32,000 nucleotides of DNA from NCBI RefSeq assembly GCF_018336915.1, contig NZ_CP064923.1:3990001-4022000 (forward strand), written 5' to 3'. The position numbers and the translations under genes were made by a program. The stretch comes from Acaryochloris marina S15 (lineage in GTDB: Bacteria; Cyanobacteriota; Cyanobacteriia; Thermosynechococcales; Thermosynechococcaceae). This document shows, piece by piece, positions 12,780 through 25,120 of this stretch. Within the stretch, counting starts at the first letter, position 1. Every line of letters starts with the position of its first letter. The notes beneath the pieces are model-generated. The model saw nothing but the letters and a program-made list of their open reading frames with translations. It did no database searches and had not been told where the DNA came from.

Positions 12780-13655
12780 TTAGCCGCCTAATACAAACAC
12801 GCGCACAATGACCGAGCCATCGGGTGTGTACCTTTCACCTTCGAGATCGGCAATTAGTCCCGCCGGATTCTGGATCAATTGTGACGGATCATAAATGACA
12901 CACCAAAGGCGTTCACAATCGGAATGACGTCTGTAATGTTCGATGTCAATTATAAGCTCATCACCAACCCTGCCAGCATGAGCTTTGTCACGAACGCGTT
13001 TCGTTTCGATAACCAATCTATAAGCTGGCAATAGAAAGTCCATTCGAGTGCTAGAACCGCCGTAGCTGGGTGTGAATTCTTCTGGGCGAATGTCAGCAAC
13101 CCAAGGCCGCATAAGTGAATGCAGCAAGTCTTGGATGTCATACTCCGAATTGAATGTTAGTGATTGAGCGTTTATTCGGCGATGAGAGAGTGGGTACATT
13201 GCGCGTGGTAGCCCGCGAACCAAGACTTGCAGCGTTTCTTCAACCGTAGAAGATGTGTTGATTGCTGGAACTTGTGTTCCTGATGTTTCGGATGGAGGTA
13301 TTTCACCAACAGGTAAAACACGACCGCCTCGGTAGTAGCGAAAACCGTTCTCTTCAAGCACAGTAACTATTCGCTCTCGCTTCGCTCGCCAAGTATCAAG
13401 CTCCTCAGATTCTTTGGGTTGTAAATCCATGAATTCCGAGAGCAGGTTTCCAAATATTTTTAGGGCATCAACCTCTGGGTCGTTTGCCATACGAACCAGC
13501 CACGTCTTCCACTTAGCATGATGTGCGCCTTCTGGTGGATCGCCCGGCGCGCCAACGGCTTTGAATAGCGCATCCAGCGTCGCATGAGAGCCGGCGTTCT
13601 CAAATACTTCGGCAACGACAGCGCAGACGGCGGTTGAGATATGAACTGACGGCAT
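12780..13655 (-). CDS. Hypothetical protein with a C-terminal PD-(D/E)XK nuclease-like domain
   Basis: 291 aa. The C-terminal ~125 aa carry E171 (SEYDIQDLL), D206 (TRMDFLLP) and E217-x-K219 (LVIETKR), the canonical E...D...ExK order and spacing of restriction-endonuclease-fold nucleases. The N-terminal ~165 aa are unrecognised. Confidence 0.55.
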   Translation of the reverse strand: MPSVHISTAVCAVVAEVFENAGSHATLDALFKAVGAPGDPPEGAHHAKWKTWLVRMANDPEVDALKIFGNLLSEFMDLQPKESEELDTWRAKRERIVTVLEENGFRYYRGGRVLPVGEIPPSETSGTQVPAINTSSTVEETLQVLVRGLPRAMYPLSHRRINAQSLTFNSEYDIQDLLHSLMRPWVADIRPEEFTPSYGGSSTRMDFLLPAYRLVIETKRVRDKAHAGRVGDELIIDIEHYRRHSDCERLWCVIYDPSQLIQNPAGLIADLEGERYTPDGSVIVRVFVLGG

Positions 13656-16579: not shown

Positions 16580-16650
16580 GGTGGATTCCTTAATAGTAAT
16601 TAGAGGTATGTGTTTAGAAGATGGAAACTAATTTTTTTAGTTATCTTAAC

Positions 16651-16670
16651 TATACAGACAGGTCTGTATA
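16651..16670. promoter_or_regulatory. Candidate TetR operator: TATACAGAC-AG-GTCTGTATA
   Basis: 9-bp perfect inverted arms with a 2-nt centre, ~72 nt upstream of the VOC start codon. VOC is the first gene of the co-directional VOC-PNPOx-TetR cluster. Confidence 0.4.
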
Positions 16671-16911
16671 TTATCAACTCAATCAATAAGATTTTTATGG
16701 TAAATTCTTTGCTAGGGCGTTTTAGCAAATATTAAAGGCTAGAAAAGAAAGGCCGTTTTTCTATAGATATCTGGAGAACGAACCAGTTGTTGCCAAGGAG
16801 TTTAACAGTACATTTCCTGCACTATCGATTCGGTTGCCCGTTATCAAAAACTGCTAAACATCAGTATTCGGTGAAAATCATTCAACAAGGTGGGGCATAG
16901 GAATACTGACC

Positions 16912-19281
16912 ATGGCACAAGACAAGCCATATCAAGAGGCTGAACGCAAAATCGCAGAAGCACTTCGGACTGGAGCAACCACACTCAATCTGGAATGTAG
17001 TTGGTTCGCTAATGACTCAGAGAAACTCACCGAGTTGCCGGAGTCGATGGGCCAGCTCTCACAGTTGCAGGAGTTGAACCTCTCCAGCAACCAGCTGACA
17101 ACGCTGCCGGAGTCGATGGGCCAGCTCTCACAGTTGCAGGAGTTGAAACTCTCCAGCAACCAGCTGACAACGCTGCCGGAGTGGTTGGGCCAGCTCTCAC
17201 AGTTGCAGGTGCTGTACCTCGACAGCAACCAGCTGACAACGCTGCCGGAGTGGTTGGGCCAGCTCTCACAGTTGCAGGTGCTGTACCTCGACAGCAACCA
17301 GCTGACAACGCTGCCGGAGTGGTTGGGCCAGCTCTCACAGTTGCAGGTGCTGTACCTCGACAGCAACCAGCTGACAACGCTGCCGGAGTGGTTGGGCCAG
17401 CTCTCACAGTTGCAGGTGCTGTACCTCGACAGCAACCAGCTGACAACGCTGCCGGAGTGGTTGGGCCAGCTCTCACAGTTGCAGGAGCTGTACCTCTCCA
17501 GCAACCAGCTGACAACGCTGCCGGAGTCGATGGGCCAGCTCTCACAGTTGCAGGAGTTGAACCTCTCCAGCAACCAGCTGACAACGCTGCCGGAGTGGTT
17601 GGGCCAGCTCTCACAGTTGCAGGTGCTGTACCTCGACAGCAACCAGCTGACAACGCTGCCGGAGTCGATGGGCCAGCTCTCACAGTTACAGGTGCTGTAC
17701 CTTGAAAATAACCAACTGACAACGCTGCCAGTGTCACTGAAGCACTTGGAACAACTTTTAGGATTGGACTTGCGAGGGAATGCTGACCTCAGCATTCCGA
17801 GCGAGATTGCAGAACAATGGGAAGATTCTGCGCAAGAAATCCTCAACTACTACTTCTCTACACAGGGTGATCGCGGCTCTGCCCTCCGCGAATTAAAACT
17901 CCTAATCGTCGGGCGGGGCGGGGCGGGAAAGACCAGTTTGGTCAAACGCCTCAATCGACAGCCCCTCGATCTGGCGGAAAGCGAGACCCATGGAATCAAC
18001 ATCAGTCCATTGGAATTAGCCTGTCATGACGGGCCAGTAACAGCTCGGGTATGGGACTTTGGCGGCCAGCATGTGCTGCATGCCATGCACGAGTTCTTTC
18101 TCACAGCCCGCAGTCTATATCTATTGGTGCTCGGCGAACGCGAAGACATGGCCGAACGCGATGCTGCTTACTGGCTACAGCTTATCCGTAGCTATGCCGG
18201 GAAAGCTCCGGTTGTTATTGCTGTGAACAAAAATAAGGGTCGGTCCCGCGAGATGGACCGGGAATCGTTAGAACACAACTACGGCCCAATTCTGGCCTGG
18301 GTTTCCACCGAATGCTCAGAGGGGTTTGACGATACGGTCGAAAACTTGCGCACAGCGTTAACCGAAGCGGCCAACGGCATGCAAGAGGTCCGTGATCGAT
18401 TCCCCGCTAAATGGTGGACGATCAAAGAAAGGTTGGAAAGCATGAGAGAGCCGTACCTCAATTTTACCGAGTATCAGCAACTTTGCAACGAACTGGGCGA
18501 GCAGGATCTCCAACAGCAGGAAACGTTGGCTGCATGGCTGAACGATCTGGGTATCGCCATCAACTATGTCGAGGATGAGCGTCTCCACAACACCACGGTA
18601 TTGCGTCCCGACTGGCTGGCCAACGGCATCTATGCCTTGCTGCGTGCCAATGATGCCCATCACGAACAGCCATTTGCGCCGAATGCCGAACTAACGGCCA
18701 ATCAGCTCGGCCCCATCTACGAGGGTTCTCATCAGTTGCAGATGCTCAACGCAGCCGATTATCCCCAGGAGAAGTGGCCCTTTCTGCTGCAACTGATGAA
18801 CCTGTTCCAGCTCGCATTCCCAGTCGACGAGACTGGTCAGACGTTACTGGTCCCTACGTTACTGTCACTCGAACCACCCCCGAACTGCGAGGAGCCAGAT
18901 GCCGAAGACCGCACACGACTGCGCTACGAATTCGCGGTAGTGCCGGGACCACTCTTGCCAAAGTTGTTAGTCCGAACATTCTCCCTAATCGACGGTGAAC
19001 GCCGCTGGCGACGTGGGGCCATCCTCCAATACGGCGAAGCCCATGCCCGAGTCTGGACCACTCAAGATGAACGCTGGATTCGCATTACAGCTGTGGGCGA
19101 TAGGGAGGATCGCAACGAATTACTCACGATGATCCGCGTCACGTTGCAGGAACTCTTTGCCGAATATAAAGACCTGCATGCCGTTGAACAGTGGGAAGAC
19201 GAGGGAGATTGGATTCCCCGCCGTAGACTAGAGCGCGAAGGTAAGTTACCGATAGAAGATGACCAAGAGGAGGTGGACTAA
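16912..19281 (+). CDS. ROCO protein: N-cap + 11 leucine-rich repeats + Roc (Ras-of-complex) GTPase + COR domain, with no fused output domain
   Basis: 789 aa. 11 x 23-aa LRRs (LTTLPEWLGQLSQLQVLYLDSNQ). P-loop GRGGAGKTS (nt 17911-17937), switch II DFGGQ (18055-18069), G4-position NKNK (18226-18237). COR-like hallmarks RFPAKWWTIKERL and VLRPDWLANGIYALL. Confidence 0.88.
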   Translation: MAQDKPYQEAERKIAEALRTGATTLNLECSWFANDSEKLTELPESMGQLSQLQELNLSSNQLTTLPESMGQLSQLQELKLSSNQLTTLPEWLGQLSQLQVLYLDSNQLTTLPEWLGQLSQLQVLYLDSNQLTTLPEWLGQLSQLQVLYLDSNQLTTLPEWLGQLSQLQVLYLDSNQLTTLPEWLGQLSQLQELYLSSNQLTTLPESMGQLSQLQELNLSSNQLTTLPEWLGQLSQLQVLYLDSNQLTTLPESMGQLSQLQVLYLENNQLTTLPVSLKHLEQLLGLDLRGNADLSIPSEIAEQWEDSAQEILNYYFSTQGDRGSALRELKLLIVGRGGAGKTSLVKRLNRQPLDLAESETHGINISPLELACHDGPVTARVWDFGGQHVLHAMHEFFLTARSLYLLVLGEREDMAERDAAYWLQLIRSYAGKAPVVIAVNKNKGRSREMDRESLEHNYGPILAWVSTECSEGFDDTVENLRTALTEAANGMQEVRDRFPAKWWTIKERLESMREPYLNFTEYQQLCNELGEQDLQQQETLAAWLNDLGIAINYVEDERLHNTTVLRPDWLANGIYALLRANDAHHEQPFAPNAELTANQLGPIYEGSHQLQMLNAADYPQEKWPFLLQLMNLFQLAFPVDETGQTLLVPTLLSLEPPPNCEEPDAEDRTRLRYEFAVVPGPLLPKLLVRTFSLIDGERRWRRGAILQYGEAHARVWTTQDERWIRITAVGDREDRNELLTMIRVTLQELFAEYKDLHAVEQWEDEGDWIPRRRLEREGKLPIEDDQEEVD
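17026..17784 (+). repeat. In-frame 69-bp tandem repeat array (11 units) encoding the LRRs
   Basis: Units 1-10 (17026-17715) are near-identical at the DNA level, and units 3-6 read as four identical 69-bp copies. There are two sub-types (ESM...QEL-LSS and EWL...QVLYLDS) plus two chimeric units. Confidence 0.95.
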
Positions 19282-19781
19282 TGCGCCAGCTCAATCTCCT
19301 TGGTCCTGGTCCAGTTAAGTTGTTCGTCAGCTATTCTCATATAAACGCGGCATGGTTCCAAAAGCTCCGCCCGCTGCTAAAGTTCCGAAATCCATCGGCT
19401 AACATCGCTCATGTTTGGCACGATCAGGAACTGCGAGCCGGCGACCGTTGGCATGATGAAATTCAAACGGCACTGGAGCGGATGGATGTGTTTGTCTGTT
19501 TGGTGAGCTACGAGTTCTTGGATTCGGATTACATCATGGATATTGAACTGAAGCATGCACTGGCTCAAGAGCAAAAAGGTAAGGTGGTGATCGTGCCAAT
19601 TCTGCTCTACGACATGAACTTGAAGGATGACTGTCCAGAATTGAATGCGTTTAACCCATTACCCGCCTGGAATAAATGCTGGCGAAACTATGAAAAAGAC
19701 GGCGGACACTACCAAGATGCACACCAACCGATCCGTAAAGGCCTGCAAGATGCAATCAATAAAGTAAAGGCAAAGCATTGA
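19281..19781 (+). CDS. Stand-alone TIR-domain protein (TIR_2-like), translationally coupled to the ROCO gene
   Basis: 166 aa. KLFVSYSHINAAW..., VWHDQELRAGDRWHDEIQTALERMDVFVCLVSYEFLDSDYIMDIELKHAL..KVVIVPILL follows the bacterial TIR pattern (FxSYxxxD/N; D..i..G..w; vlvS..yl.S.w...El). Its ATG overlaps the ROCO stop (TAATG at 19279-19283). Confidence 0.85.
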   Translation: MRQLNLLGPGPVKLFVSYSHINAAWFQKLRPLLKFRNPSANIAHVWHDQELRAGDRWHDEIQTALERMDVFVCLVSYEFLDSDYIMDIELKHALAQEQKGKVVIVPILLYDMNLKDDCPELNAFNPLPAWNKCWRNYEKDGGHYQDAHQPIRKGLQDAINKVKAKH

Positions 19782-19865: not shown

Positions 19866-20341
19866 CTATTGCTTAGGCTTTAAAGCCAATAAAAACTCAC
19901 TGGTCAACGTGGATGAATCCGTTTGGACATTCACCATGCCAATCCCTTTAATTGAGTTCAGAATTGCCTTCACCTCTGGCGTATTAAACTCACTCTTCGC
20001 CACGTCAGGATAACTAAACAATAGGCGATTCGCCTCTTCCATATTGACGTAGAAATAACCTGTGTCACGGGGTAAAGATTGCGTCACAGATTGGAAATTA
20101 TCGCTCTTATCCAGGGTCTTTTGAGGGCGATTTGCCATGACTTGAGTAATGGGTTGGCCCACGGTGATAAACATAGTGTTGTCATCCAACCACCCCCGCC
20201 CAATGATGTTCTTTCCCACGGATGGGATATGCCAATGGGTGACCTTAACCTTGCCAATTTTGCTGTTGGTAATCTCTATTTTATTTTGCTTGGCAAAGGT
20301 ATCCAGCTTCGCGAATGTGGCGGTAGCTTTTTTGCGATCGC
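19866..20341 (-). pseudogene. Orphan 3' fragment (copy A) of a DUF3352-like gene, paralogous to 22071-22549
   Basis: Encodes DRKKATATFAKLDTFAKQNKIEITNSKIGKVKVTHW...LALKPKQ*, collinear with the C-terminus of ORF 22071..23435. Homology stops abruptly at 20341. The 18 N-terminal codons of track ORF 19866..20396 are unrelated sequence. Confidence 0.85.
20176..20341. repeat. 166-bp direct repeat, copy 1 (165/166 identical to 22384-22549); ends in HIP1 GCGATCGC (20334-20341)
   Basis: Aligned by eye. The single mismatch is at 20229 (A) versus 22437 (T). Confidence 0.9.
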
Positions 20342-20427: not shown

Positions 20428-20688
20428 GTGAATCAAGTGAATACCTTTTCTAGTCGTGAGTTTAATCAAGATGTGGGTAAGGCTAAACGGGCAGCGGAGG
20501 ATGGACCTGTCTTTATCACGGATCGGGGGGCACTGGCCCATGTGTTATTGACGGTAGAGCAGTATTACAGGCTTGTTCAATCTGCTGACTCTGTCGCCGA
20601 TTTATTGGCGATGCCTGATGCTGCTGAGGTTGAGTTTGAGTCTGCGCGAGATAAAAATATGACGTTAAGACAAGTGGATCTGGCTTAA
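20428..20688 (+). CDS. vapB: Type II antitoxin, Phd/YefM-like (VapB partner of the PIN toxin)
   Basis: 86 aa. FSSREFNQDVGKAKRAAEDGPVFITDRG is typical of prevent-host-death-type antitoxins. Its stop overlaps the toxin ATG (TAATG). The start could also be GTG 20437. Confidence 0.8.
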   Translation: MNQVNTFSSREFNQDVGKAKRAAEDGPVFITDRGALAHVLLTVEQYYRLVQSADSVADLLAMPDAAEVEFESARDKNMTLRQVDLA

Positions 20689-21116
20689 TGTTTTTGCTCG
20701 ATACGAATGTTGTATCGGAACTGCGGAAGGTGGGTTCAAAGAATGCTCATCCCCAGGTGGAACTGTGGGCCAGGAAGACGCCGGGGGAGCAATCCTATAT
20801 TTCAGTCATCTCGATCTTTGAGATTGAACGGGGAGTGCTGCTGACGGAACGGCGTGATGCTAAGCAGGGGGCGCTACTCCGACAGTGGTTTAATGATCAT
20901 GTGCTAGATAACTATGCAGAGCGTATCTTGCCCATTCATTCCCAAGTCGCGCTGCGTTGCGCGAGGCTCCATGTCCCGGATCCGATGCCTGCTTACGATG
21001 CGCTGATTGCGGCTACGGCACTGGTGCATGGTTTGACGCTGGTAACTCGAAATGTCAGTGACTTTGAACGGACTGGGGTGGAGATTATTAATCCTTGGGA
21101 GTTTGGTCGTGGGTAG
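20688..21116 (+). CDS. vapC: Type II toxin VapC (PIN-domain ribonuclease)
   Basis: 142 aa. MFLLDTNVVSELRK start, acidic PIN residues (LDTN, FEIERG, YDALIAATA) and TRNVSDF near the C-terminus. Confidence 0.88.
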   Translation: MFLLDTNVVSELRKVGSKNAHPQVELWARKTPGEQSYISVISIFEIERGVLLTERRDAKQGALLRQWFNDHVLDNYAERILPIHSQVALRCARLHVPDPMPAYDALIAATALVHGLTLVTRNVSDFERTGVEIINPWEFGRG

Positions 21117-22070: not shown

Positions 22071-23435
22071 TTATTGCTTAGGCTTTAAGGCCAACAAAAA
22101 CTCACTGGTCAAGGTGGATGAATCCGTTTGGGCATTCGCCATACCAATCCCTTGGATCGAGTTAAGAATAGCTTTCACCTCTGGCGTATTAAACTCACTG
22201 TTGTTCGCCACCTCTGGATAACTAAACAGCAGACGATTTACTTCTTCCATATTGATGTAGAAGTAACCTGAGTCTTGGGGTAAAGATTCTGTCACAGATT
22301 GGAAATTATCGCTCTTATCAAGAGTCTTTTCGGGTCGATTCGCCATGACTTGAGTAATGGGTTGACCAAAGGTCACAAACACCGTGTTGTCATCCAACCA
22401 CCCCCGCCCAATGATGTTCTTTCCCACGGATGGGATTTGCCAATGGGTGACCTTAACCTTGCCAATTTTGCTGTTGGTAATCTCTATTTTATTTTGCTTG
22501 GCAAAGGTATCCAGCTTCGCGAATGTGGCGGTAGCTTTTTTGCGATCGCTCGTATCAAACACCAGCGCTCCCCCAAAGCCAACGGGTTCGAGAATGCCTT
22601 CCTTACTGGGAATTAGGGCAAAACCCACCTCACCATCCATCCAGCTAAAAATGTCTCGCTCCAAATCCAGTCGAGTGGTTTGACGCACATAAATGCGCAT
22701 CGCATCGATGGCAGAGGCAAATTCAGGAATACCCGAGAACTGGTCTACAAAAAGCGGCCACTGTTTCTTGATATTTCCCCCATTAGCAGACAGCCACGTG
22801 TTGGCAGGGAAGCGAGAGATGATCTTGCCGGGAATTGGGTCAAATTGTCCTTTCCAAAGCTGTGGATCGACTTGAGTTACACTTCTGAAGCGAATCCCCT
22901 GATCGTCAATTCCCATGCCCATGGAAACTGATTTCACCTTCTTGAGCTGATCTTTAAGTTCTGGTGGTATCTCAGGCGTATCTGCTTCATCCAAAATATC
23001 CAGTTGCTCAATGACTTCGGCATAGTCCAGAAGATGGAACTGGGTCACTGAATTTTCTAATTTTAGGGACTGAAAGGCTTTAGCCGACTCTCCAGTCGTC
23101 CCTAAAGAAGGAGCCCCTTTCGATGCATCAATGGCTTTTTTGACCGTAGCGACTTGATCCGATGCCGCCAGGTGGTTCTCCAGAATAGCGACATATCCGG
23201 GTTTGTCTGATTTATCAGCCCCTATTTTGACAATCTCCACCCCTTTATACTGCTTGGTTTCTTGGATTTTTAAGCCATCCTCTTTTTTCACCTTGTTATA
23301 GAAATCTGAGGCCGCGAGTTTGTCCTTGATGCCAATCACCACCATAAATCCAGGTGTCCCGCCTGACTTCTCTGCTGGCAAAAATGCCATCATGGCTTTC
23401 CCCAGCCAGGGTTTAAGGTCTTTACTATAGCTCAA
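22071..23435 (-). pseudogene. DUF3352-like protein, C-terminal 454 codons (copy B), separated from its 5' part by an IS insertion
   Basis: The first codon of the track ORF is TTG inside the target-site duplication. The reading frame continues from 24836-25120 once the IS and one TSD copy are removed (...LAEDN|LSYSKDLKPWLGK...). The DUF3352 assignment is from memory of cyanobacterial homologues and is unverified. Confidence 0.75.
22384..22549. repeat. 166-bp direct repeat, copy 2; ends in HIP1 GCGATCGC (22542-22549)
   Basis: See 20176-20341. Confidence 0.9.
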
Positions 23436-23441
23436 ATTATC

Positions 23442-24827
23442 GGCTCTCTGGGAATTAGCGTGGTAGCCGCTAGATATAGTGTTTAGGTCAAGGCAAAAGT
23501 CTGATACCCATTGAGGTCAAGCGAAATCCTTTGGAAGAGCCTTTCAATATCGAAAATACCGTAGCATCGTCTTTTTAGGACCTTAACTCGGTTGTTAAAT
23601 CCTTCGACAAAGCCACTGGTCCATCCCTCCAGAAAATAGTTGGTCATCTCATCCATCCAATTGTTGACAGTGGTCAGGAAACTCTCAAAATCCTTGATGT
23701 CACTTTTGAGGACTCGTTTACACCAAGCCCGGATGGCACATTTAGCTCCGTTTTTGGTGTACCTACCCTCAAATATCTGTGTCAATTCCTCTCGGAGTTT
23801 GTAGGCCTGCTTCATCTCAGGAGAATAAGCAAACACTCGCTCAAGCAACTGTTGTTCTGACTCCTGGAGATTCTCAGGCCGTTTTCGAAAGGCCCACATC
23901 GCACCTTTGATACTGTCATAATCTTGCTTAGAGAGTTCTTGGCGTAGACGTTTGACCTCCCGTTTACGAACTGTATCGGCGCAATTACGATAGGCTTTGG
24001 CCACATGAAAGCGGTCAATGACAACTTTTGTTTGAGGGAGTTGTTCACGGACTGCACTGACAAATCCTTGATACATATCAGTACAAACCCGCTCAATGGT
24101 TTGGCGTAAATGAAGGGGAATCGATTGAAGGAAATTTGCAACGGTCTGTTGTTTACGGTCAGCCAGAACTGCCAATATGTCGACTCCGCCTGTGGTAGGA
24201 ATCGTGATCAAAACTACAAAATCACGGTGGCCTCTTTTCAGAGAAATCTCGTCAATCCCGATGACTTTGAGGTCTAAATATTCGCTCCAGTCAACTGGAC
24301 AGGCAATCCAGCGATCAATAATGCCACTGACGACACCTTCACTAACGCCTAGTTTTCTAGCAACATCTGAGACCGTTGAGTTGATCAGGATACGCAGAAG
24401 CCAATGCTCATAAGCTTTTGTATTGGGACTACGAGGTTCATGCCATTCTAAGCGTTGAGTTGTTGTGGGATGGTCATCGCAATACCCGCATCGATAGCGC
24501 TTGGGCCGAATTTCTAAATACACTGGTACTTCGAACAATGGCAAGTGACGAATTCGAAGAGCCTGATCATGGCAATGAAGGTCAGTAATCTCATGTCCAC
24601 ATTTGTGGCAGGTTGTTCCTTGCAGAGTACTCTCAATTTTGATCAGCCAATCCCCTCGTTCCGTCTTCGATAGCTCTAGAACTTGAACATCGGGAAGGTT
24701 GAGGGGAATGCGAATTGAGTTATCCATGACACTCTCGTTCTGAAGTACCTCCTCAGATCATTCCATAGGGATGACTAAGGAATAAACACTATATGTAGGG
24801 TGTCACCACGCTAATTACCGGAGAGCC
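23442..24827 (-). mobile_element. ISL3-family insertion sequence, 1386 bp, apparently intact
   Basis: Terminal inverted repeats GGCTCTCTGGGAATTAGCGTGGT (23442-) and GGCTCTCCGGTAATTAGCGTGGT (reverse complement of -24827) match at 21/23. 8-bp direct target-site duplication AAATTATC at 23434-23441 and 24828-24835. One uninterrupted transposase ORF. Confidence 0.9.
23483..24727 (-). CDS. ISL3-family transposase
   Basis: 414 aa. N-terminal zinc-finger region (CHKCGHEITDLHCHD...YRCGYCD), HTH (STVSDVARKLGVSEGVV) and a DDE core (IGIDEISLKRGHRDFVVLI...VCTDMYQGF) typical of ISL3 transposases. Confidence 0.9.
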   Translation of the reverse strand: MDNSIRIPLNLPDVQVLELSKTERGDWLIKIESTLQGTTCHKCGHEITDLHCHDQALRIRHLPLFEVPVYLEIRPKRYRCGYCDDHPTTTQRLEWHEPRSPNTKAYEHWLLRILINSTVSDVARKLGVSEGVVSGIIDRWIACPVDWSEYLDLKVIGIDEISLKRGHRDFVVLITIPTTGGVDILAVLADRKQQTVANFLQSIPLHLRQTIERVCTDMYQGFVSAVREQLPQTKVVIDRFHVAKAYRNCADTVRKREVKRLRQELSKQDYDSIKGAMWAFRKRPENLQESEQQLLERVFAYSPEMKQAYKLREELTQIFEGRYTKNGAKCAIRAWCKRVLKSDIKDFESFLTTVNNWMDEMTNYFLEGWTSGFVEGFNNRVKVLKRRCYGIFDIERLFQRISLDLNGYQTFALT

Positions 24828-25120
24828 AAATTATCTTCAGCTAACTCCTGATCCAGTTCCTTGATCAAGGCGTCTAGGCCCTCTCTATAGAGTTTCTGAG
24901 CCTCTGGTGTCCCAAACTGCTCCAGCTTCTGCCAGGCGTCAAAATCGAGGTTAATAGAGGCCGTCATCCATGCTTCATCGGGTACTATTTTTGCGATCGC
25001 TAACGTACTGGTCCCCTGCTGCGCTGGAATCACCTTGAGATACAGGTAGGCTGCCACACCACCAACAGCAAGGGTACCTGCAATCACACCTGGAATAATG
25101 TACTTCCAATGTTTAGCCAT
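24815..25120 (-). pseudogene. DUF3352-like protein, N-terminal ~97 codons, truncated by the IS
   Basis: MAKHWKYIIPGVIAGTLAVGGVAAYLYL (N-terminal TM anchor)...LAEDN. The frame then runs into the IS inverted repeat (LALR*) and stops at 24815. Confidence 0.75.

Follow-up and report, generated by a model that had tools for sequence, protein, structure and literature searches.

Organization of the ROCO–TIR Locus

The window, which is the whole 32,000-nucleotide stretch of DNA analysed here (Acaryochloris marina S15, contig NZ_CP064923.1), includes a ROCO gene followed by a gene for a stand-alone TIR protein, and the whole two-gene unit occupies 2.9 kb. LRRK2 is a Parkinson's-disease protein with leucine-rich repeats (LRRs) and a GTPase switch, and ROCO is a bacterial relative of this protein. 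The initial annotation described a 789-aa LRR-Roc-COR ORF and a 166-aa TIR ORF that overlap at TAATG; both ORFs, their Pfam domains and the overlap were confirmed. The features of the locus are as follows.

16646..16674, + strand: weak promoter-like site, based only on a 9/12 consensus match, within the 332-nt intergenic region ahead of ROCO
16912..19281, + strand: ROCO gene (789 aa; N-cap, LRR array, Roc G domain, COR-A, COR-B and a conserved acidic C-terminal tail)
16981..17811, + strand: LRR sensor region, about 11 units of 23 aa (LxxLxLxxNQLTxLPExxGQLxx; tandem-repeat analysis by TRF and unit list)
17896..18231, + strand: Roc (Ras of complex) G domain, aa 329–440 (Pfam Roc)
18403..19188, + strand: COR-A (aa 498–651) and COR-B (aa 667–759) (Pfam)
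19186..19278, + strand: clade-specific, conserved ROCO C-terminal tail (EQWE..G.WVPR.TLE..G.LP, then acidic residues; conserved alignment columns)
19279..19283, + strand: stop/start overlap TAATG, the translational coupling junction (from the sequence)
19281..19781, + strand: stand-alone TIR protein (166 aa), with TIR_2 at aa 15–130 (19323–19670)
19545–19547, + strand: catalytic-type Glu of TIR, E89 (by alignment)
aa 131–166 of the TIR protein, + strand: conserved C-terminal helical extension, part of ORF 19281..19781

The scan for promoters and terminators yielded no more than expected from shuffled sequences, and this also holds for the number of promoter-like sites in the region upstream of ROCO. 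The long ORFs at 16932–17846, 17027–17737 and 17181–17705, which lie in other frames or strands within the LRR array, are artefacts of its 69-nt repeat.

Domains of the ROCO Protein

The ROCO ORF matches Pfam LRR_8 (7e-76), and matches Roc (7.9e-23, aa 329–440), COR-A (2.4e-28, aa 498–651) and COR-B (2.3e-14, aa 667–759) all above the gathering cut-offs. The Roc G domain is directly followed by COR, consisting of COR-A and COR-B, as is characteristic of the ROCO class. Profile-HMM searches thus bore out the Roc/COR assignment, as they did that of TIR, and Pfam detected no kinase or other output domain in the ROCO ORF, in agreement with the initial annotation. The GRGGAGKTS, DFGGQ and NKNK motifs named there were all located, as were the COR hallmarks RFPAKWWTIKERL (aa 496–508) and VLRPDWLANGIYALL (aa 563–577). 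The protein is 100% identical to P0121, a 'COR domain-containing protein [Acaryochloris marina]'. Its Roc-COR region is homologous to that of Methanosarcina barkeri RocCOR-A (PDB 4WNR; sequence match, 2.6e-57) and of Chlorobium tepidum Roco (CtRoco; PDB 3DPU, 6HLU and 8R4B; about 1e-46, best stated E = 4.6e-47), and the LRR-Roc-COR architecture is shared as well; a ROCO fragment (aa 18–457, fragment numbering) aligns with the CtRoco Roc-COR tandem.

The LRR core (17036–17729) consists of a 69-nt unit repeated in tandem 10.1 times with 95% identity (TRF) and is flanked by degenerate first and last units, consistent with the 11 LRRs originally counted. Across the clade, copy number ranges from about 2 to 13, and the entropy maxima within the unit are at positions 3, 5, 7 and 8, which form the concave face. 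Copy number and concave-face residues are therefore the variable parts of the protein, whereas Roc-COR is 48–89% identical across the clade. The arrays are internally homogenised in many clade members; together with the conserved Roc-COR, this does not obviously amount to an arms-race signature.

In Roc, G1 (P-loop GRGGAGKTS, aa 334–342, 17911–17937, including K340) and G3 (switch II DFGGQ, aa 382–386, 18055–18069) are intact, and G4 is non-canonical (NKNK, aa 439–442, 18226–18237). The guanine-specificity Asp of NKxD is absent from all of the approximately 37 clade members, in which G4 reads NK[S/N]x and the fourth residue varies. Outgroup ROCOs retain NK[ICSV]D at this position and, unlike the present clade, CtRoco and 4WNR have the canonical NKID. 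Because the canonical Asp is missing, the label of GTPase switch is not secure and GTP-specific switching is uncertain.

The TIR Protein

The second ORF matches Pfam TIR_2 (5.6e-16, aa 15–130), and its AlphaFold2 model (pLDDT 88, pTM 0.85) has TIR domains as the top structural matches (Foldseek; probability 1.00, TM 0.5–0.6). These matches do not place the protein in a functional subclass, as TLR, SPARTA, MAL, TcpB, ThsB and SARM1 all score at a TM of about 0.5–0.6 (SPARTA TIR, 0.56–0.58). The best PDB sequence match is Cat1 (3e-06). In alignments, E89 coincides with the region of the catalytic Glu in AbTIR (NYEL) and Cat1; it is invariant in 42 homologues, and its conservation across 27 loci is 90% or more. 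The TIR fold and a catalytic-type Glu are thus present, and the protein is a candidate NADase.

Junction and Conservation of the Gene Pair

A Shine-Dalgarno sequence, GGAGG, is located at 19269–19273 inside the ROCO tail, 7 nt ahead of the TIR ATG. An ATGA or TAATG overlap combined with a GGAGG-type site 6–10 nt before the TIR ATG recurs in 30/31 related loci, indicating that the ROCO–TIR arrangement is not due to chance. Judged from these signals, the two genes are arranged for translational coupling.

Loci with a ROCO homologue and this TIR family are found in Planctomycetota, Verrucomicrobiota, Acidobacteriota and other phyla, in free-living aquatic and soil bacteria, and the clade proteins are compact (ROCO, about 570–920 aa; TIR, about 165 aa). 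A ROCO gene is followed by a TIR gene in all close-clade loci with enough downstream DNA (about 28), and conversely all six independent TIR homologues (6/6) are linked to ROCO, so that the linkage on which the initial annotation made its proposal depend holds in both directions. Roc-COR and TIR identities correlate across loci (r = 0.70; Mantel, 0/2000), which indicates co-divergence of the two proteins.

Fusions place TIR in the effector slot after COR. Within the close clade, P0192 is a natural in-frame ROCO–TIR fusion in which the ROCO tail runs directly into the TIR N-terminus, and the outgroup ROCOs have CHAT or TIR fused after COR-B, the nearest of them (Phormidium, Pseudanabaena) being LRR-Roc-COR-CHAT proteins. 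TIR is also fused to ROCO in Myxococcales relatives, and 11 ROCO–TIR fusions are present among the best 149 TIR-profile matches. The ROCO C-terminal tail is a candidate segment for tethering the stand-alone TIR.

The phyletic distribution of the cassette is patchy and scattered across phyla, consistent with horizontal transfer. The Acaryochloris species-representative genomes yielded no match to the cassette, though the search patterns fit the window exactly. The GC content of the ROCO gene is 54–57%, compared with 44–50% in the flanks. One metagenome-assembled genome (MAG) has two ROCO–TIR cassettes (L010 and L013), and the ROCO or TIR ORF is split in some MAG loci (L016, L033 and L035).

Genomic Context

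The neighbours originally reported as vapBC, an IS and gene debris are real: the window contains a Phd/PIN toxin-antitoxin pair (20428–21116), an ISL3 transposase gene (23483–24727) and DUF3352 fragments, and a DpnII-like REase gene is also near the pair. The defence-island-like context attributed to them is local, as defence-type neighbours occur only in this window. In the 30 other loci, the flanks contain diverse housekeeping genes (Pfam), and the anticipated enrichment near defence genes did not appear, as no PADLOC family recurs in more than one of the 102 flanking ORFs, a small sample read with no formal background rate. Secretion-system genes do not recur in these flanks either. No third conserved gene accompanies the cassette among the 102 ORFs, suggesting that TIR is probably the terminal effector.

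Clade members are absent from IMG/VR viral contigs and INPHARED phages, and PLSDB plasmids contain only distant ROCO paralogues (≤33% identity). The PADLOC matches of ROCO are noise (mad8, 0.0077; PtuA/AAA, 0.025), and hence ROCO is not a catalogued defence protein.

Relationship to Known Systems

Bacterial Roco proteins serve as structural models for LRRK2, yet neither a biological function nor an output is known for any of them; CtRoco is likewise not known to have an effector partner or a biological role. Proteins with LRRs, an AP-GTPase (equivalent to Roc) and COR have been predicted computationally to be counter-invader systems, with C-terminal TIR, caspase, GT4 or other domains (Kaur, Iyer, Burroughs and Aravind, eLife 2021; PMC8195603). 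The present pair has the composition of this AP-GTPase-centred class, namely N-terminal variable LRRs, AP-GTPase, COR and an effector after COR, and is a split variant of the predicted kind. In that catalogue, COR+TIR architectures number in the hundreds, fused LRR-AP-GTPase-COR-TIR examples include Nostoc punctiforme Npun_F6039/ACC84329.1 and Fibrisoma limi WP_009282559.1, and a split arrangement, LRR+AP-GTPase+COR followed by a separate GT4 gene, is analogous to the split TIR pair; in the portion of the supplement covered here, TIRs are fused only, with no split COR–TIR arrangement, and the table shows no TIR gene beside CtRoco (WP_010933192.1, 1102 aa) (PMC8195603). The fused proteins share domain logic and order with the present pair, and P0192 bridges the two forms. 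Unlike in those proteins, the TIR here is encoded separately under translational coupling and ends in a conserved helical extension; the clade is also compact, has a non-canonical G4 and shows unusual conservation across phyla.

Work on bacterial gasdermins (Johnson et al.) includes the purification and study of a gasdermin-activating Roc-COR-CHAT protease of Runella zeae, which is encoded in a gasdermin operon. This protein ties a ROCO module to a cell-death effector, as proposed here; there, a caspase-like protease fused to the ROCO module acts on gasdermin, whereas here the effector would be a TIR in trans with no downstream substrate gene. The literature searched contains no experimental report on a ROCO–TIR pair or on AP-GTPase-centred systems, in line with the initial statement that no experimentally characterised defence system of this composition was known. 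The novelty was nevertheless overstated, given the computational prediction (PMC8195603) and the purified Roc-COR-CHAT protease.

Thoeris ThsB, SPARTA TIR-APAZ, Cat1, TIR-STING and TIR-SAVED share the TIR fold and conserved catalytic Glu with the present TIR. The controlling module is Roc-COR NTPase with LRRs here and Argonaute, CARF, STING, SAVED or ThsA in the other systems. Sensor-driven assembly is a common activation theme among TIR-effector defence systems. Plant TIR-NB-LRR proteins, Avs and bNACHT resemble the pair in combining a repeat sensor, an NTP switch and a death effector. The order is reversed relative to plant TIR-NB-LRR/STAND proteins, with the sensor N-terminal and the effector C-terminal or in trans. 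The pair does not belong to STAND (NB-ARC/NACHT) proteins, as a Roc/Ras-type domain is its only P-loop domain (Pfam), and the likeness to STAND/NLR receptors is regarded as analogous, not homologous.

A Model for ROCO–TIR Function

The domain order, conserved linkage, fusions and variable LRRs support well, at the level of architecture, the sensor-switch-effector logic originally suggested for this locus, with the reservation that the GTPase nature of the switch is insecure. We judge it somewhat probable that the pair is a horizontally mobile two-gene conflict module of the abortive-infection type, in which a ROCO switch with an LRR sensor controls a TIR that destroys NAD+. ROCO would be both sensor and switch, with the variable LRR solenoid binding a ligand derived from the invader or induced by infection. 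In CtRoco, GTP drives monomerisation and a hinge swing of the LRR (PMC11052575), which offers a mechanistic template: ligand binding would detach the LRR from the core formed by Roc-COR and, like GTP in CtRoco, alter both the nucleotide state of this core and its oligomerisation. Translational coupling would supply TIR in a fixed proportion to ROCO, and TIR may be held on or near the C-terminal tail of COR-B. Activation would unmask TIR or bring about TIR–TIR contact, and the activated TIR would destroy NAD+ through E89, leading to cell arrest or death.

A bolder form of this model, possible though doubtful, is a true anti-phage (Abi) system in which an LRRK2-type Roc-COR switch, its guanine specificity lost with the change from NKxD to NKSx, would act directly on a TIR NADase bound in trans to license it; by analogy with the G4 of YchF/OLA1-type proteins, such a switch might be gated by ATP or any NTP. 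The non-canonical G4 in any case poses a biochemical question, namely which nucleotide drives the ROCO switch. The pair combines a minimal ROCO with a single assayable enzymatic output, is strictly co-inherited across phyla and is only 2.9 kb long, so that both the immune-switch prediction and the way in which the nucleotide state of Roc-COR reaches an effector are directly testable. Should the bolder form be correct, bacterial Roco proteins would gain a first assigned biological function, and the 2.9-kb unit would serve as a model for the control of an output enzyme by a ROCO switch; if the cassette is validated, a GTPase-based receptor class would join the STAND/NLR-like receptors in bacterial immunity.

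Alternative Explanations

The pair might instead sense an internal signal, such as stress, an envelope cue or a metabolic cue, and tune NAD+, dormancy or programmed death in bacteria of surface-attached or multicellular habit, with no role against phages. The housekeeping rather than defence-rich flanks, the strong conservation of Roc-COR under apparent purifying selection, the lack of mobile-element or virus association outside this window and the precedent of bacterial Roco proteins with no known function are compatible with such a switch. It is rather unlikely in view of the patchy phyletic distribution, including the lack of a match in Acaryochloris species-representative genomes, and of the variable LRR surface and copy number, the paralogues in one genome and the interchangeable CHAT/TIR slot, which are typical of conflict systems.

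Decidedly improbable is a Thoeris-like pathway, in which the ROCO-activated TIR would make a cADPR isomer or another nucleotide signal for an effector encoded elsewhere and NAD+ would not be depleted. Like ThsB, the TIR is a small protein that stands alone, its best PADLOC match is ThsB-like (5.9e-15) and EcThsB is among its Foldseek matches, but the PADLOC match covers only positions 3–101 of the 319-position profile. Neither the scanned ORFs of the window nor the 102 flanking ORFs of the 30 loci include a ThsA-like (SIR2, SLOG or Macro) gene or a recurrent third gene, and a distal effector would be lost when the two-gene cassette moves between phyla. Membership in Thoeris itself was rejected on the partial ThsB match and the lack of an adjacent ThsA.

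It is very improbable that the LRR and TIR proteins are secreted for virulence or symbiosis and disturb eukaryotic TLR/TIR signalling, like TcpB/TirS or LRR type III effectors. TcpB is among the Foldseek matches and the LRRs partially match XopAE, XopAC, SlrP and SspH2 (NCBIfam), but these scores are far under the curated cut-offs and confined to LRRs, such that type III effector identity (XopAE, SlrP and others) was rejected; moreover, the hosts are free-living, secretion-system genes do not recur, and Roc-COR and translational coupling would be senseless for secreted proteins. Accidental fission of a decaying, frameshifted LRR-Roc-COR-TIR gene with no split-system function, as the fused relatives and the split MAG ORFs might suggest, is effectively refuted by the conservation data: the split form, with its own Shine-Dalgarno sequence and ATG, is kept in 30/31 loci of several phyla, neither ORF is disrupted and both are highly conserved, and stand-alone TIRs of 158–176 aa form about 160 distinct clusters.

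Domain Organization of the ROCO and TIR Proteins

Two overlapping genes encode an LRR-Roc-COR-A-COR-B protein (ROCO) and a small TIR protein (TIR), as the initial annotation had proposed:

16912-19281, + strand: ROCO gene (ORF1), 789 aa
19281-19781, + strand: TIR gene (ORF2), 166 aa

The genes share the sequence TAATG at 19279-19283, and a GGAGG Shine-Dalgarno sequence at 19269-19273 precedes the second ATG by 7 nt. Acaryochloris marina entries at NCBI match both proteins with 100% identity. The ROCO motifs quoted in the initial annotation are all located in the sequence, and its Roc/COR and TIR assignments are borne out by Pfam. In ORF1, LRR_8 (7e-76), Roc (7.9e-23, aa 329-440), COR-A (2.4e-28, aa 498-651) and COR-B (2.3e-14, aa 667-759) all exceed the curated cut-offs, and Pfam contains no further domain that matches this protein. 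The Roc-COR part has solved homologues in M. barkeri RocCOR-A (2.6e-57) and C. tepidum Roco (CtRoco; 4.6e-47); across phyla it is 48-89% identical, with long invariant blocks. A PADLOC scan of ROCO gave no meaningful match, and NCBIfam matches of the pair, which were LRR-only and sub-threshold, were set aside.

ORF2 matches TIR_2 (5.6e-16, aa 15-130) and, in PADLOC, has a partial ThsB-like match. The AF2 model of this protein (pLDDT 88, pTM 0.85) resembles TIR domains in the PDB at TM 0.5-0.6, including those of TLR1/2/10, SPARTA TIR-APAZ, MAL, TcpB, EcThsB and SARM1. The catalytic Glu region of AbTIR and Cat1 aligns with E89, which does not vary among 42 homologues. The ORF2 product is a real but divergent TIR. 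An additional C-terminal helical extension (aa 131-166) is also conserved, with invariant W134, G142, A147, I151, R152 and G154.

Conserved Linkage of ROCO and TIR

The linkage between the two genes is conserved whichever of them is taken as the starting point. Metagenomes contain about 160 clusters of stand-alone TIR proteins (158-176 aa, 53-82% identity). Six independently chosen homologues come from Pirellulales, Verrucomicrobiia/Verrucomicrobiales MAGs and unassigned metagenome contigs; each is directly preceded by an LRR-Roc-COR gene, with an overlap of 1, 4 or 11 nt. From the ROCO side, a Roc-COR alignment scan over 185,579 species-representative genomes yielded 79 loci, and local HMM searches of their neighbours reveal a sharp split between a close clade (Roc-COR identity of at least 51%) and distant ROCOs (35% or less). 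The close clade derives from MAGs labelled Planctomycetota, Verrucomicrobiota, Pyrinomonadaceae, 'Deltaproteobacteria' and a few others. A TIR gene of this family lies directly downstream in all of the approximately 28 close-clade loci with enough downstream sequence, and the only loci without it are those cut by contig ends, whereas no distant ROCO in the same scan has such a downstream neighbour. Distant ROCOs are 900-1240 aa long, and their C-terminus is fused to a CHAT protease in Phormidium and Pseudanabaena and to a TIR in Myxococcales.

Conservation of the junction extends to its nucleotides: 30 of 31 loci have an ATGA or TAATG overlap with GGAGG/GAGG 6-10 nt upstream. In one clade member (P0192) the genes are naturally fused in frame, the ROCO tail running directly into the TIR 'VRMFVSYSH...'. 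Eleven ROCO-TIR fusions occur among the 149 best matches to the TIR-family profile in a search of 1.84 billion representatives. Pairwise identities of Roc-COR and TIR are correlated across 27 loci (r=0.70, a value reached by 0 of 2000 Mantel permutations), TIR diverging faster (mean identity 46% vs 62%). No third gene recurs among the flanking ORFs of the related loci; the cassette consists of exactly two genes.

Most (94) of the same 149 best TIR-profile matches (P0241-P0389) are proteins that carry 2-7 TIR domains in tandem and reach about 2000 aa, and some ROCOs bear TIRs at both termini or tandem TIRs after COR (P0273, P0277, P0291, P0294). At three loci a gene is divided into two ORFs that look frameshifted (ROCO at L016 and L033, TIR at L035), which could be pseudogenisation or assembly error.

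LRR Array and G4 Motif

The core of the LRR array is a 69-nt unit present in 10.1 copies with 95% DNA identity, flanked by degenerate units at both ends. Copy number ranges from about 2 to 13 units across the clade. Entropy is highest at positions 3, 5, 7 and 8 of the 23-aa unit, which are exposed concave-face residues, and the scaffold positions are nearly invariant; a variable binding surface classically shows this pattern. Many arrays, however, are homogenised internally, the window array having a mean identity of 0.84 between units. Three further ORFs of 174-304 aa in other frames or on the other strand of the array (16932-17846, −; 17027-17737, −; 17181-17705, +) were rejected as genes, being by-products of the near-perfect 69-nt tandem repeat. 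One MAG (JAGROX01, Verrucomicrobiia HKST-UBA29) contains two separate cassettes, with ROCOs of 562+ aa (L010) and 737 aa (L013), representing paralogous diversification with differing LRR lengths.

The G4 motif of the window ROCO is NKNK (18226-18237). The guanine-specificity Asp of NKxD is absent throughout the clade (about 37 members: L001-L036, L044, L056), where the motif reads NK[S/N]x and its fourth residue is not conserved; G1 and switch II are intact. Outgroup ROCOs of the same scan retain NK[ICSV]D, and those of the CHAT type keep NKxD. Of the ROCO-TIR fusions from the TIR-profile search, eight representatives could be aligned at G4, and five of these also have non-canonical motifs (NEFR, NEKE, NEKG, NQKQ and NIKA). 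Loss of the Asp may alter nucleotide specificity.

Relation to Known Roco Systems

A survey of AP-GTPases (=Roc) described predicted counter-invader systems with rapidly evolving N-terminal LRRs and COR, in which the C-terminal effector domain takes at least 24 alternative forms, among them TIR, caspase, trypsin, DRHyd, GT4 and FGS (Kaur et al., 2021; PMC8195603). Its source data include hundreds of 'COR+TIR' architectures, e.g., Npun_F6039, Fibrisoma limi and Verrucomicrobium spinosum, and a split 'LRR+AP-GTPase+COR-> GT4->' arrangement (PMC8195603). TIR occupies in trans the slot of a C-terminal effector. Because the fused form had already been predicted in silico, the initial annotation overstated the novelty of the idea. 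The new element is the recognition of a clade, tight and widely transferred, that has lost the canonical G4 Asp throughout and in which a conserved coupling junction provides TIR in trans. Full-text literature searches turned up no experimental study of a ROCO-TIR system.

In CtRoco, GTP drives monomerisation and a large LRR hinge movement (PMC11052575). The purified Roc-COR-CHAT protease of a Runella gasdermin operon cleaves its gasdermin, and its LRR-Roc-COR-CHAT architecture is shared by the cyanobacterial outgroup ROCOs nearest the clade (L038 and L040 of Phormidium lacuna, L047 of Pseudanabaena).

Proposed Mechanism and Alternatives

We consider it moderately probable that LRR sensing is converted by a Roc-COR shift into NAD+ hydrolysis by TIR and growth arrest. 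The LRR surface would sense an invader-derived or infection-induced ligand, which would shift the LRR/Roc-COR conformation and the nucleotide or oligomeric state. TIR would be kept stoichiometric by coupling, and the conserved C-terminal tail of ROCO and the C-terminal helices of TIR itself would probably act as the tether; release or assembly of TIR would then allow NAD+ hydrolysis via E89 and arrest growth. In this scheme the architecture, linkage, coupling, fusion, effector-slot equivalence and invariant Glu are observations, and the binding, trigger, enzymology and immune role are inferred. Gene order may matter, as TIR would rarely be made without the ROCO encoded first; this would fit a potentially toxic enzyme in need of its regulator.

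The initial annotation read the pair as a candidate immune sensor-switch-effector module in a defence-island-like context. The architecture and conserved linkage are solid, and the local description is right for the window. The context is not general: among 102 flanking ORFs (two nearest per side) of 30 other loci, no PADLOC family was matched more than once, the Pfam content being sulfatases, DUF1501, ligA, MutS, DXP synthase, RNase PH and the like. The predicted defence role is plausible but lacks backing from neighbourhood statistics, and a non-immune physiological switch is an unlikely alternative. Thoeris-like signalling to a distal effector is distinctly improbable. Secretion of the proteins as host-directed effectors is very improbable, and a meaningless gene fission is essentially refuted because of the conservation data. 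The main value of the ROCO-TIR pair is as a minimal, tractable system in which bacterial Roco proteins could be assigned a function.

Genomic Setting and Probable Horizontal Acquisition

The window is chromosomal, with housekeeping genes including the suf operon, RF and ribosomal S9. The pair lies in a variable stretch of about 12.2 to 25.1 kb, which also contains genes for a GNAT acetyltransferase, a DpnII/MboI-like endonuclease, a TetR regulator, a PNPOx-like protein, a glyoxalase-family protein, a DUF3352 3' fragment, a Phd/PIN toxin-antitoxin pair, a pentapeptide-repeat protein and a DUF3352 protein, the last interrupted by an ISL3 transposase:

12780-13655, − strand: DpnII/MboI-type restriction endonuclease ORF (Pfam 5e-41)
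22071-23435: body of the split DUF3352 gene
23483-24727: ISL3-family transposase, splitting the DUF3352 gene
24815-25120: N-terminal piece of the split DUF3352 gene

GC content is 54-57% in the ROCO gene (17000-19500), compared with 44-50% in its flanks and 38% around the pentapeptide gene, which is consistent with acquisition from a higher-GC donor. Acaryochloris species-representative genomes gave no match in the Roc-COR scan, although the search patterns fit the window exactly. Together with the two cassettes in one MAG, these results suggest that the cassette is accessory and was acquired horizontally. Searches of viral contigs, phage genomes and plasmids found no clade member.

No methyltransferase was detected in the neighbouring ORFs scanned beside the endonuclease ORF (GNAT on one side, an unannotatable 126-aa ORF on the other). 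The endonuclease may represent an R-M orphan or remnant. The last approximately 470 nt of DUF3352 are duplicated (19866-20340, −, and 22071-22545, −; about 92% identical), forming a direct repeat that flanks the Phd/PIN pair and the pentapeptide-repeat gene; homology between the copies begins exactly at a GCGATCGC (HIP1-like) site.
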